The notes: generated by a model from the letters alone, not told the origin. DNA of 64,000 nucleotides from a virus (IMGVR_UViG_2791355391_000001:182-64181), one strand, 5' to 3'. Positions 35,285-38,550 are shown, counted from the first letter of the stretch. Program-made: numbers and translations.

Positions 35285-35390
35285 GTGGTGCCGGGTGCCT
35301 CCCGGTAAGTCTGCCCCAGCCAACAGACCTGCGTGTGTGCTCAAAGAGAAAACCTGGCTGGTCGCCCCACCGCACAGGGGGATTCACCAC
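35285..35390 (-). ncRNA. Candidate structured RNA, copy A
   Basis: Homologous to 38359-38467 with compensatory stem changes; TTGACT-18-TAATGT promoter at 35397-35426. Confidence 0.7.
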
Positions 35391-35643
35391 GCATCTACAT
35401 TAGCTATGCGATAAGTGCATAGTCAATCCGATGTAACCAGTAAAAACACCTCTTTCGGAAAACTGTATATCCTGGCAGACAATAATTAATCATTTCATAT
35501 TGAATCATTACAAAACCAACAATAAAGTTTCATATCAGGTTTCAAATTAAGAAAAAATTCCAGTTGGGAATTTTCTCACTTAAATCCCACACTATCCCTC
35601 ATGCGAACCATAATATCCATGGTCCTTAGGAGGGTTAACTCAC

Positions 35644-35763
35644 ATGATAACCATACTGATGATAGCGTTAGCTGTAGTTCTTCTTTTAGTTGCAGTGGGT
35701 TCACTGGTTTCATACTTGCGAGAAACGAGTAAATATAAAAATACTTTTAAAAAAAGGTATTAA
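35644..35763 (+). CDS. 39-aa single-pass membrane peptide (not in ORF track)
   Basis: AGGAGG RBS; MITILMIALAVVLLLVAVGSLVSYLRETSKYKNTFKKRY*. Confidence 0.6.
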   Translation: MITILMIALAVVLLLVAVGSLVSYLRETSKYKNTFKKRY

Positions 35764-36071
35764 CTTTTACCCAATTCTGCACAAAAGGGGTAGTCAACCG
35801 GCACTATCCCTGCTTTCTAACTACCGCCTTCCAGTAAGAAGGCCTAAGTCACCCTGGTGTCGCAGAGAACGTCTATACGCAAGATCCATGACCTGATTAC
35901 ACAACCACACTCTCGCAGTGCTCTGCGCCCGTGCCCTTGAGTTCATGTCACATCATCGCCGCTAATAACCAGTACGCGTTTGGCGTTCGCATATCGGGTG
36001 ACGAAACGCTCAGACTTTCCTACTGCCCGCGGTAAGCAGCCCAACGTGATCAGCGAGTACGACCCATGGGC

Positions 36072-36349
36072 CTAAGAATATTTAATGGCCACTATCGCAA
36101 CGATCAGTGCAACCAATGCCACCAGTAGTGACACACCAGTGAGCAGCAACGAGGCCGTATTCATCATCCGCTGGTAGTAAAACTCTCGCATGGCTTTTGT
36201 AGTGGACTCGCGGTGTTCAAAATCATTCTTATTAGGATATGCCAGGTCGTAACCGTCTGAGATTTTCCTTTCAATGGAAGCGTGAAGCACGTCGTTCCAG
36301 CTATGCGTAAAATTAACAAATGCATCTGTAATTTTCTGTTTCATTGTCA
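36072..36349 (-). CDS. Hypothetical protein with C-terminal membrane anchor
   Basis: LLLTGVSLLVALVALIVAIVAI; start uncertain. Confidence 0.55.
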
Positions 36350-36441
36350 TCTCACCCTGATTGTTATTATTGGTGATGATATCAAATAGGATGACAAAAA
36401 AAGCCAACGTATCGGTGGGCTTGTTGTGACATGTCACGGCA

Positions 36442-36726
36442 TCAACAATCGCTATCAGGCCTTGCTATTGCACGACATGCCCACATACAGGCTTCCTGCA
36501 TTTTGGTGCGCGCGATAGCCATACAGCGCAAAGCCTCTGCTCTCTCGGTTTCGGCCTGACTACCACGCTCGACAACTTCAGCCGTTGTAACCTCTCGCTC
36601 AGTATCGAGCAGACTGCAAAAATGCCGGCTGACACCTTTGAGGCGGTTCATCCGCTCAATGTCGCCAGCGGTTAATGTGCGGTAGCCTTTTACAGTGCTG
36701 CCGTCCTGCGGTTTTGCTTCACTCAT
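36442..36726 (-). CDS. Acb2-family anti-CBASS cyclic-oligonucleotide sponge homolog
   Basis: KGYRTL..IERMNRLK and RCMAIARTKMQEACMWACRAIARPDS match the Acb2 pattern KGYRxL..MNxxK / RxxAIxxTxxQxxxMxxxRAIAxP. Confidence 0.75.
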   Translation of the reverse strand: MSEAKPQDGSTVKGYRTLTAGDIERMNRLKGVSRHFCSLLDTEREVTTAEVVERGSQAETERAEALRCMAIARTKMQEACMWACRAIARPDSDC

Positions 36727-36811
36727 TTCGTAGCCCTTTCGGTTGTACCTGGTTTGCTTTTACTAGCTCGTAGGTGGATATTGTTGGGAAGGAAAGCATG
36801 GAGATAACCAA

Positions 36812-36994
36812 ATGAAACAGATACTATTTACATGGTTTGCTTTTACAAATACCTATGCCTGCATCACCGCCAGCATTAACGTGAACAACTCACTAATGCT
36901 TGATTCAGCTGTGCCGTGGATTGTTGGGGTTTCTCTTGGAGTAATCACCAATTACTTATTGGTTAAGAAACTGAAGGAAAGCGGGTTTCTGTAG
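36812..36994 (+). CDS. Small membrane protein moron
   Basis: 60 aa, GGAG RBS, opposite strand to late operon. Confidence 0.55.
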   Translation: MKQILFTWFAFTNTYACITASINVNNSLMLDSAVPWIVGVSLGVITNYLLVKKLKESGFL

Positions 36995-37015
36995 CCCTGC
37001 CGGTTGCTAGCCTGC

Positions 37016-37192
37016 TTACTTCTTAACGCTGTCCGGCATCACCGCGCCAACAACGCCAGCCAGCGCTACGCCGCCAGCGATGACCGTTTCTTGAATGCCC
37101 GGAGGCATCTGATAACCAAATACGCCAGCAATGACCAGGATGATGCCGCGCCAGGTTGACGGCTCTTTCAGCCGATTAATGAGATAGTTCAT
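37016..37192 (-). CDS. 58-aa two-TM protein after endolysin (not in ORF track)
   Basis: MNYLINRLKEPSTWRGIILVIAGVFGYQMPPGIQETVIAGGVALAGVVGAVMPDSVKK*; AAGG RBS. Confidence 0.75.
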   Translation of the reverse strand: MNYLINRLKEPSTWRGIILVIAGVFGYQMPPGIQETVIAGGVALAGVVGAVMPDSVKK

Positions 37193-37207
37193 AAGTTACC
37201 TTCAGCT

Positions 37208-37687
37208 TTATTGTTTAACTTCCGCTACGACGCCGCCAGCGGCTTTGAATTTTGCGATGAGGTTACTGGCCTTATGCTCAAACTGGCCGTAGCCCGCGCC
37301 GGGGAGAGACGCCCAGATATTGCTGCAACGGTAGATGGCCTGAAGAAGCTGCCCGTTGTCAATGAGCGGCAAAGCTCCACGCTCTTTAATTTGCTGCAGG
37401 GCCACCTGGTCCTGCGACGCCGGTGAGAAGTCTTTCAGTCCCAACTGCTTACGGTATGCATCCCACCACTTGGCCAGCAGCTGATAGCGGCCCGCTGCGG
37501 TGGATTTAATACCCAGCTTTGGCAGGTTAACCAACTTGCGTGGATGATCGCTGTAGTCAGTAAAGAGTGAACCACCAACAATGACGTCATAGCCTCGGTT
37601 CTTTGTCGGCTGCCCCGCTTTGTCTGTACCTTCAGACCAAGCGAGCATGTCCAGAAACGCTTTACGTTGTTTATTGATCTCCAGCAT
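37208..37687 (-). CDS. Endolysin, lambda R-type lytic transglycosylase
   Basis: [38 protein letters not shown]; exact start among three Met codons uncertain. Confidence 0.97.
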
Positions 37688-37994
37688 CATCAACTCCTGC
37701 CTTTCTGGCTGCGATTTTTTTAATCAAGCTCCCGATCGAGTCAGTACCGATATAGCCAATGAAGACACTGGCGATGTAGGCGAGATTGCTGCTCAGGCCA
37801 ATGAAGTCGAGAAGGTCACGGACGAACCAGGCGATCATCGCGCACATGACAGCATCGATCAGCGTCTTCGCCATGGCGCCACCGTTATAGCGGCCACGCA
37901 AATACGCCATGATGAAAGCCAGTATTGCGCCGATACCCTGCTCCTTAGCTGCCAGCAGAGCGGCGATGAAATCTTGTTTGTAGGGCATTCGCAT
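37671..37994 (-). CDS. Class I holin, lambda S family, with Met-Arg-Met dual start (107/105 aa)
   Basis: [38 protein letters not shown] at 37994 and 37988. Confidence 0.95.
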
Positions 37995-38358
37995 AAGCCT
38001 CACCTCCGTTAATGACGGATGGCGCTGTGTGTTTGAAAAGGTTCAGGCCCATCGGGCTGATTTAGCGAAAAGCCTTAAACGGAGCCACCCGTGAGCCTGA
38101 AATGAAAAAGGCCGCGCAATAGCACAGCCCTTAAATGTTTTTGGTTAGTTGAAGTGCCTTGATCAGGCGAAAAAAAGCCCGCTCTAACGGGCGGGCAGAA
38201 AGGTAGGCATTCTGATTTTGTAACGGTTCGATACGCACCTAATAGTCCGAGCTACCGATTTACCAGGAGAGTGATCATTATTCCGTTACTGCCTTTTAAA
38301 CATAGCTGGAGAAGCCGAAACGGCAACCCCACTACCAAATAGCTTAGTAGCATTGCAT

Positions 38359-38467
38359 ATGGTGCCGGGTGCCTCCCGGTGGGCATGTCCCAGCCGACAT
38401 GGCCCGCGCTGCATTTACAGATCACTGTAAGTGACTGGCCGCCCCTCCGCACAGGGGGATTCACCAT
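38359..38467 (-). ncRNA. Candidate structured RNA, copy B
   Basis: Homologous to 35285-35390; TTGACT-18-TAGATT promoter at 38474-38503. Confidence 0.7.
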
Positions 38468-38550
38468 GCCGTTAATCTAATTTGTAAACTTTGTGTTAGT
38501 CAATATGTAACACTCTGTCAAAGGCACCCGAAGATGCCTTTTGCACAGTG

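Follow-up and report, generated by a model that had tools for sequence, protein, structure and literature searches.

Two members of the STnc100 small RNA family with a pseudoknotted five-helix core among the late genes of a Klebsiella-type lambdoid provirus

The DNA analyzed in the current work is a stretch of 64,000 nucleotides (nt), hereafter named the window, which represents positions 182 to 64181 of a provirus record in IMG/VR (IMGVR_UViG_2791355391_000001; 64,181 bases in total). The window is a Klebsiella-type lambdoid provirus, Klebsiella phages being the closest group and accounting for 34 of the 39 phage records that match its lysis region. In its late region, located on the minus strand, comparison with PHROGs and Pfam gives the following order: Q, a TerB-like open reading frame (ORF), RNA B, holin, endolysin, an Acb2/Tad1-domain ORF, RNA A and the terminase small subunit (Table 1). 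RNAs A and B are two diverged copies of one structured RNA, which a prediction made from the sequence alone (the original prediction) had placed on either side of the lysis/Acb2 block; this arrangement is confirmed, with the holin, the endolysin and the Acb2/Tad1-domain ORF between the copies. A and B are new members of the STnc100 family of small RNAs (sRNAs; Rfam RF02076), a gammaproteobacterial family which was originally listed in Salmonella.

Table 1. Coordinates of the two RNAs, their control elements and the neighboring genes in the window
Feature	Coordinates	Strand	Evidence and remarks
RNA A structured core	35285-35390	-	Rfam STnc100 80.8 bits over 35230-35418; custom covariance model 92.5 bits
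RNA B structured core (P1, P2, Px, P3, P4, P5, linker/P4-loop pseudoknot)	38359-38467	-	Rfam STnc100 74.3 bits; custom covariance model 89.2 bits
Promoter of RNA B	38474-38503	-	TTGACT 38503-38498, 18 nt, TAGATT 38479-38474; consensus scan, 9/12 matches
Promoter-like site of RNA A	35397-35426	-	TTGACT 35426-35421, 18 nt, TAATGT 35402-35397; sequence reading
3' extension of RNA B	38197-38358	-	Predicted hairpins and a single-stranded stretch ahead of the terminator; run X1 contigs, fold prediction; lacking in the Rfam model
Intrinsic terminator of RNA B	38170-38196	-	6 G-C pairs then T7; terminator scan
Second terminator-like hairpin, between RNA B and holin	38100-38132	-	Terminator scan
Tail and intrinsic terminator of RNA A	35230-35284	-	Rfam terminator helix, high posterior probability
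Q	39630-40427	-	PF03589, 153 bits; 265 amino acids
Late promoter	39613-39585	-	TTGCAA, 17 nt, TAATCT; sequence reading; canonical, directly after Q
Late-promoter terminator	39542-39519	-	Terminator scan
TerB-like ORF	38703-39128	-	PF05099, 28.6 bits; phrog_632 'tellurite resistance'
Holin	37671-38003	-	Phage_holin_3_1, 102.6 bits (Pfam, PHROGs)
Endolysin	37208-37693	-	PHROGs, Pfam
Small ORF	37016-37192	-	Between the RNA copies
Acb2/Tad1-domain ORF	36442-36726	-	94 amino acids; Acb2_Tad1_hairpin PF24729, 63.1 bits versus cutoff 27

The Rfam model of STnc100, which comprises 206 positions and has a gathering score of 47 bits, is matched from position 1 to position 206 by both A (E 1.1e-15) and B (E 5.2e-14), these two being the sole gathering-level Rfam matches in the whole 64 kb. 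Both copies have the closing helix, the C-rich P2 hairpin and the variable hairpins of the family together with its invariant CCGGG-AGGCA-CCCGG arm, and both end in an intrinsic terminator: that of A is aligned to the terminator of the model, while B skips the terminator segment of the model and carries a strong terminator of its own. The site near Q and the lysis genes is likewise that of STnc100 in lambdoid prophages. The suggestion that the RNA might belong to a catalogued family of poorly known function was correct, the specific candidate put forward, sRNA-Xcc1, giving no match at its gathering score or, within 35100-38600, at E<=10. A permissive Rfam scan of the same interval at this E value returned ten further matches, all weak and well under their thresholds, none of which is a tRNA, a tmRNA, a ribozyme or sRNA-Xcc1. 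Because the match is to a named, expressed and Hfq-binding family, most of the novelty is removed, as the original prediction had itself foreseen for such a case, and the finding is mostly an ordinary one, adding two copies to an sRNA family which is among the most commonly annotated in enteric prophages.

The sequence features on which the original prediction was based (closing stems, 5' block, 3' arm, loops and linkers) were all retrieved where it had placed them. A and B are 75% identical over a 265-column alignment. Each core is closed by a stem, which pairs GUGGUG (35390-35385) with CACCAC (35290-35285) in A and AUGGUG (38467-38462) with CACCAU (38364-38359) in B, the outermost pair being compensatory (G-C in A, A-U in B). 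The 5' block GAAUCCCCCUGUGCGG(U/A)GGGGCG is common to A and B, and the 20-nt 3' arm CCGGG-AGGCA-CCCGG-CACCA is the same in both; it has two matches in the window versus 0.02 expected, and none of 100 shuffles gives two. The hairpin preceding this arm has an unrelated stem sequence in A versus B and the loop GGCUGG in both, this loop being complementary to an upstream linker with the sequence CCAGCC in A and CCAGUC in B; in A, the pairing CCAGCCA/UGGCUGG generates a contiguous helix of 8.

Homologous loci were drawn by exact match, the 3' arm being used for viral contigs and the 5' block for genomes, and the motif scans yielded at least 120 stretches in viral contigs and at least 120 in species-representative genomes. 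From these, 276 copies (219 of them unique) were extracted and thinned by shared 6-mers to 134 representatives, of which 133 were aligned, one without the P2 pattern having been dropped and one having been exchanged for the identical window copy A. In the MAFFT alignment of the 133 representatives, the proportion of cells that are paired is 94.6% for P1, 99.1% for P2, 95.2% for Px, 94.7% for P4 and 99.8% for P5, and RNAalifold predicts 24 pairs, 16 of which show double changes. The covariation score is 0.320, as compared to 0.146 in shuffles (none of 500 reaching the observed score) and to at most 0.101 when the partners are slid. The claim of a functional phage RNA selected for its structure is upheld by this score, and covariation persists in a wider alignment, with helices that are 94-99.8% paired over 133-149 homologs. 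The covariation evidence covers P1, P2, Px, P4, P5 and the pseudoknot, P3 being a helix that cannot be aligned.

The core is a five-helix junction consisting of P1, P2, a Px-P3 arm, P4 and P5, in which no linker bases are present at the P2/Px, Px/P4 and P5/P1 boundaries, and the minimum free energy fold of B recovers P1 to P5. P2 is best drawn with five pairs, a variable bulged base (the U/A position of the 5' block) and a five-base loop. Px, a helix beyond those originally listed, is formed by GCN directly after P2 and NGC directly before P4; the third of its 3 base pairs (bp) is found as GC (58), AU (22), UA (20) and CG (18). At this place, the Rfam consensus has a 3-bp hairpin with a 1-nt loop, between P3 and P4, and no pseudoknot. 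Conservation is mainly seen at the junction and in P2 and P5; the distal P3, P4 and the pseudoknot are variable yet remain paired. The AGGCA loop is constant in all but 1 of 122 3' arms, which were retrieved from 124 homologs with the 5' block as the anchor, the arm being lacking in the other 2.

The length of the core varies in the homologs from 105 to 141 nt, with all residues modulo 3 being represented, and this bears on the possibility that the element is a small protein gene. An ATG-initiated ORF of 71 amino acids (38252-38467, minus strand) begins at the first base of RNA B, a RefSeq 'hypothetical protein' is located under the E. coli match and ribosome footprints have been reported at some copies of strain EDL933 (E. 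coli O157:H7) (PMC5331693). Copy A is without an equivalent frame from its first base, and because the 71-amino-acid ORF has no Pfam or PHROG match, the homolog lengths are without a period of three and the helix substitutions are compensatory, the element is an RNA rather than a small protein, a possibility whose likelihood we regard as close to negligible. The annotation 'hypothetical protein' is found over the E. coli-type core in all 8 RefSeq records listed, and among the 12 listed records with a B-core match there is no annotation under the match in 10 and a hypothetical protein in 2; such calls over the STnc100 RNA probably constitute a recurrent false gene call, an annotation error which is flagged here.

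The 3' arm had also been likened to the T-arm and acceptor end of a tRNA, with the proposal that the RNA mimics a tRNA or serves as a decoy, the targets being anticodon nucleases or defense nucleases of the HEPN type. P5 does stack on P1 via a continuous 3' strand, in a manner loosely resembling a T-arm/acceptor minihelix (a resemblance only), an Acb2 anti-defense gene is located between the copies, and in one Klebsiella phage a tRNA-Asn follows a B-like RNA. The supposed CACCA end nevertheless belongs to the 3' strand of P1. Its last base is replaced by G in 24 of the 124 5'-block-anchored homologs, other variants being found as well, and the P1 pair which includes this base covaries (UA in 97 and CG in 26 homologs). 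Moreover, the P5 loop has 5 nt instead of 7, there is no anticodon-like arm, ARAGORN detects 0 tRNA genes in the window, the E<=10 Rfam scan of 35100-38600 is devoid of tRNA and tmRNA families, and the RNA continues for 55-190 nt beyond the supposed CCA end up to its terminator. The tRNA-like interpretation of the CACCA end was accordingly abandoned, and a role as mimic or decoy is considered very unlikely.

The pairing between the P4 loop and the linker inside the neighboring Px-P3 arm, which had been proposed as a pseudoknot, was evaluated free of any alignment by comparing each linker either with its own P4 loop or with the P4 loops of the other RNAs. A contiguous helix of at least 6 bp was obtained for 109 of 134 cognate pairs versus 31.5% of the non-cognate linker/P4-loop pairs, and the mean helix length was 6.73 versus 5.09, with 0 of 5000 permutations reaching the observed mean (118 distinct 5' strands). 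An earlier duplex-energy test on wide windows had given a modest contrast (-11.2 versus -8.9 kcal/mol, with the mean being reached by 0 of 5000 permutations) because the G+C-rich flanks pair promiscuously, and the contiguous-helix test was used instead. In both alignment-free tests, the 5' anchor is located inside the RNA for at least 5 representatives, which were kept and which work against the test. A custom covariance model was also built with the pseudoknot, instead of Px and P4, as the nested helix; 100 of the 241 sources were searched with this model and 149 matches were aligned. In this alignment the pseudoknot is 85% paired, a figure that leans toward the pseudoknot since the alignment is fitted to it, whereas the alignment-free test is free of such an effect. 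All 6 pairs of the pseudoknot are changed on both sides and the four Watson-Crick types are all frequent (for one example pair, CG 35, UA 33, AU 29 and GC 21), and Px and P4, which are outside the model, are still 95% paired. The pseudoknotted fold is real, and the pseudoknot together with Px refines the published secondary structure of the family. Neither of the two was found for STnc100 in the searchable literature, in which the only paper pairing the terms applies 'pseudoknot' to other RNAs; the word is absent from the accessible text of the preprint on the Pas RNAs (bioRxiv 10.64898/2026.05.13.724894), the supplementary PasD/STnc100 folds of which may show part of this structure.

With respect to transcription, the original prediction assigned to each copy its own promoter, with identical spacing. 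Both sites indeed have the arrangement TTGACT-18-TAnnnT, with 6 nt between the -10 hexamer and the first base of the closing stem, that of B being listed by the consensus scan and that of A not; the true late promoter is located elsewhere, as had been claimed. In the RNA sequencing (RNA-seq) run X1, short contigs over 38207-38466 have a depth of 3000-7500 versus 91 in the adjoining 5.9-kb contig (30-80x), the outermost piece ending at 38466 and adapter sequence abutting 38207. The 5' boundary thus retrieved for B, 38466/7, is located 7 nt after the -10 hexamer. Of 1326 raw reads from a second run (X24), 1322 are 95-99% alike to B, and because they are only alike to this extent they are attributed to a related copy in another strain. 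Their depth is ~500x with the first mate on the plus strand and <1 on the other strand, with zero depth over the lysis genes, and the position of the first mates indicates that the RNA is on the minus strand. According to these data, B appears to be an abundant minus-strand RNA starting at 38466/7.

RNA B has a length of ~260-297 nt, including ~110 nt between the core and the terminator which are lacking in the Rfam model, and RNA A would extend over ~160 nt to a terminator ending near 35230, which a simple terminator scan misses because its stem has an internal mismatch. Both RNAs are thus longer than the extent of ~107 nt first assigned to them, their terminators being located downstream of it. 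Among the homologs, the first T-run follows P1 after anything from <25 to >200 nt, mostly after 25-75 nt (like A) and in ~39 of 246 after 150-200 nt (like B). A self-cleaving ribozyme, which had been entertained as well, is suggested only by the compact pseudoknotted fold with its invariant junction bases; with no Rfam ribozyme family at E<=10 in 35100-38600, RNA-seq pieces that overlap continuously across the B core and full-size species on published northern blots (PMC5331693, PMC8550237), we consider it extremely unlikely.

When a strict promoter pattern was applied, in which a -35-like hexamer is separated by 16-19 nt from a TAnnnT that ends 3-14 nt before GGUGAAU, 47 of 204 unique upstream regions matched versus 0 in shuffles; 36 of these 47 have the spacing found in the window, and the E. 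coli-type copies have a different upstream layout. In at least 10 Klebsiella phage records, homology to the window starts exactly at the first base of B (query position 135, corresponding to window position 38466), and the upstream promoter segments of those phages are unrelated in sequence, with the -35/-10 layout being kept. Therefore, promoter alleles have been exchanged while the architecture was kept. Window position 38466 represents a mosaic joint at the transcription start.

What has been published on this family mainly concerns relatives in E. coli and is given here to the extent of the accessible text of each source. STnc100 is among the most often annotated bacterial sRNAs, with no function given in that text (PMC9029176). 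EDL933 carries 11 STnc100 copies, most of which are transcribed and one of which has been verified by northern blot (PMC5331693). EcOnc27 (sRNA103), an Hfq-crosslinked RNA, overlaps an STnc100 copy located just downstream of stx2B, and its overexpression increases the fimZ and espA transcripts (PMC12711010). PasD1 and PasD2 of enteropathogenic E. coli (EPEC) were identified, with targets, by RIL-seq on Hfq and are unstable without Hfq (PMC8550237); they have a fold in common with STnc100, for which a common ancestor has been proposed, and they adjoin Q and holin/lysozyme genes (bioRxiv 10.64898/2026.05.13.724894). PasD2 is also the top RNA among CsrA-bound chimeras, PasD2 and the yjbJ 3' untranslated region RNA representing 20% of the CsrA-bound chimeric reads in EPEC (bioRxiv 10.64898/2026.08.12.744399). 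In Salmonella LT2, RpoD and RpoN bind the promoters of multiple STnc100 copies (PMC10794520).

We favor, with moderate confidence, the interpretation that A and B are separately transcribed, autonomous sRNA genes of the STnc100 family, whose products would associate with Hfq and act in trans by homology with these E. coli relatives. In a lysogen, transcription from a sigma-70-type promoter would begin at the first base of P1, the initial ~107 nt of the RNA would fold into the compact knotted five-helix junction, and a variable tail would follow, ending in an intrinsic terminator with a U-run; A would be expressed in the same way as B. The RNA would then bind Hfq, as published members do, possibly also CsrA as described for PasD2, and would act on host and phage mRNAs in trans, probably via its less structured variable 3' part, and the knotted core would provide a stable scaffold, protect the 5' end or bind a protein. 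In the lytic phase, polymerase modified by Q would read through both units from the late promoter.

The distribution of the family is wide. Of 5426 complete E. coli genomes, 2785 carry the E. coli-type core, with as many as 11 places in a single genome, and the B core is found in 174 phage records, mostly Stx-converting (Shiga toxin), Escherichia, Klebsiella and Shigella phages. Among the matches listed, to which the counts that follow also refer, those in genomes cover many Enterobacterales genera. Exact 5'-block matches also occur in contigs labeled Prolixibacteraceae (L135), Mucilaginibacter (L167) and Vagococcus (L177), the first two of which are very short, and these three are probably contamination by enterobacterial DNA. 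Two to three copies are present at 35 of 241 loci, and adjacent copies are on one strand in 44 of 46 cases; their spacing clusters at 212-271 nt (tandem genes), ~484 nt, ~960 nt and 3056-3334 nt, the window belonging to the last class. When the first same-strand ORF downstream of 213 copies was retrieved, copies with <1.5 kb of downstream sequence being left out, 86 clusters were obtained, the largest of which are two holin families (24 and 13), a 681-amino-acid protein without known function (21) and unannotated ORFs. Taken together, holins occupy this first downstream position most often (37 of 213).

These numbers allow consideration of the RNA as a cis element of the late operon, i.e. a riboswitch-like leader gating the lysis genes or a processing/stability element, the 'sRNA' being a terminated by-product. 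The layout of B (promoter, P1-closed structured domain, one or more terminators, holin), the location of the copies on the late-gene strand, with adjacent copies so consistently on the same strand, and the frequency of holins downstream are all in line with such a role. With 86 downstream clusters, however, no gene family is consistently controlled, and the variable distance from P1 to the T-run means that there is no conserved expression platform; in addition, unrelated ORFs follow copy A, many copies precede another copy, and Q already governs the late genes. Comparison by eye of the terminator arms with the core for an antiterminator gave only short G+C-rich matches, which were regarded as chance. 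A cis-acting element is thus judged improbable.

The arrangement of multiple copies is most pronounced at a Pantoea plasmid locus (L152:948-1989, minus strand), where two arrays are present, each with three STnc100-type cores separated by linkers of 9-54 nt and closed by a single intrinsic terminator, the middle modules having P1 stems which are wholly different in sequence yet complementary. Cores can therefore be modules of one transcript, with neither a promoter nor a tail for each of them. Such arrays raise the alternative that the knotted core is itself the working part, being a module that binds with high affinity a conserved protein of host or phage (as a sponge or decoy, e.g. for CsrA) or a small ligand, with base pairing by the tail being secondary or absent. 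This would agree with the abutting cores under one terminator, with the tandem or multiple copies at other loci, with the conservation at the junction, P2 and P5 as well as the near-invariant AGGCA loop, and with the proportion of EPEC CsrA-bound chimeric reads that involve PasD2 (bioRxiv 10.64898/2026.08.12.744399). The partner is hypothetical, the idea being drawn from architecture only, and published members are Hfq-dependent for their stability and have many RNA partners (PMC8550237), so that we hold this alternative to be possible but rather unlikely. A related and similarly tentative proposal is that the core, instead of scaffolding a seed, represents an autonomous aptamer-like domain, locked by the covarying pseudoknot and binding a conserved host factor or metabolite.

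Several points weigh against the preferred interpretation of A and B as autonomous, trans-acting sRNA genes. No function is defined for the STnc100 family in the accessible text of the papers cited, and a self-sufficient module accounts for the three-core arrays better than a seed-bearing scaffold does. In the core, conserved unpaired bases form stretches of at most 4-5 nt (AAUC and the AGGCA loop), which is unlike a seed, and conservation centered on the junction looks more like that of an aptamer or protein site. The single-sequence folding energy of the cores is ordinary when compared to shuffles (z -0.86 for B and -0.05 for A, a third score reported alongside these being -1.32), and for this reason the case for structure rests on covariation and not on stability. 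The pseudoknot is paired in only 52% of the cells of the plain MAFFT columns, as lineages differ by 1-2 nt in its register, and the higher value from the covariance model has the lean mentioned above. Because the homolog sets were drawn by exact block match, a block is in part conserved by construction in the set which it anchored, and only the other set shows its conservation free of this bias. The promoter-like site of A is omitted by the consensus scan because its -10 hexamer, a weak one, matches at 3 of 6 positions, and the region of copy A, which X24 lacks, is covered in X1 by a flat contig with a depth of 91. Finally, X1 consists of contigs without strand or ends, and X24 represents a related, non-identical copy.

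The significance of the present analysis is mainly in the fold, which turns a supposedly simple Hfq-associated sRNA into a compact five-helix structure with invariant junction and loop bases. For an RNA which in thousands of genomes has Shiga-toxin and lysis genes as neighbors, a correct fold allows the design of precise mutants and a better covariance model, and is a reason to seek a protein or ligand partner of the core. If the core were indeed aptamer-like, it would constitute an unrecognized class of protein- or ligand-binding RNA in the prophages of half of the E. coli genomes and in Enterobacterales, sometimes assembled as three-module arrays within one transcript.

Regarding the neighboring genes, the PF03589 match of the Q protein is located in its C-terminal part, and residues 169-215 give a sub-threshold match to the DnaJ CXXCXGXG zinc finger. 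The TerB-like ORF occupies a moron position between the late promoter with its terminator and RNA B, and a moron position of this kind is also reported beside PasA/PasC in the accessible text of the Pas preprint (bioRxiv 10.64898/2026.05.13.724894). The Acb2/Tad1-domain ORF, located after the lysis genes, is a candidate anti-CBASS/anti-Thoeris sponge. In Klebsiella phage ST11-VIM1phi8.1 (L001:2860-2931), an annotated tRNA-Asn starts where the homology to the RNA B extension stops; therefore, a tRNA gene is present there after the sRNA, between Q and the lysis genes.

When compared to known systems, A and B have the 5' block, the P5 arm and the prophage late-region site in common with STnc100 as modeled in RF02076, and A also its tail and terminator; B differs by the ~110 additional nt between core and terminator, and the fold differs by the pseudoknot and Px, which the Rfam consensus does not include. 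Lambda 6S RNA and StxS of Stx phages are small, abundant, terminated RNAs which are encoded in the region between Q and the lysis genes and start from the late promoter itself, whereas A and B have their own promoter sites, apart from the late promoter and its terminator. A P1-closed junction with conserved junction bases, variable arms tied together by loop pairing and a terminator downstream is also characteristic of the purine and lysine riboswitches; this is an analogy of architecture only, A and B having no Rfam match to these, no conserved downstream gene or expression platform and no known ligand. EcOnc27/sRNA103 belongs to the same Rfam family and is located between Q/pR' and the lysis genes, and published STnc_100 PCR primers (PMC12370729) match the E. 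coli-type core of our homolog set. The window, in contrast, is Klebsiella-like and without stx, and its copies differ in the sequences of P3, P4, the pseudoknot and the tail, so that the effects described for fimZ and espA (PMC12711010) are not transferable to them. PasD1 and PasD2 of EPEC strain E2348/69 are compared here by description, the accessible text of the papers giving PasD and STnc100 different seeds; like A and B they are encoded by prophages next to Q and holin/lysozyme genes, and they are Hfq-dependent sRNAs and structural homologs of STnc100 (bioRxiv 10.64898/2026.05.13.724894).

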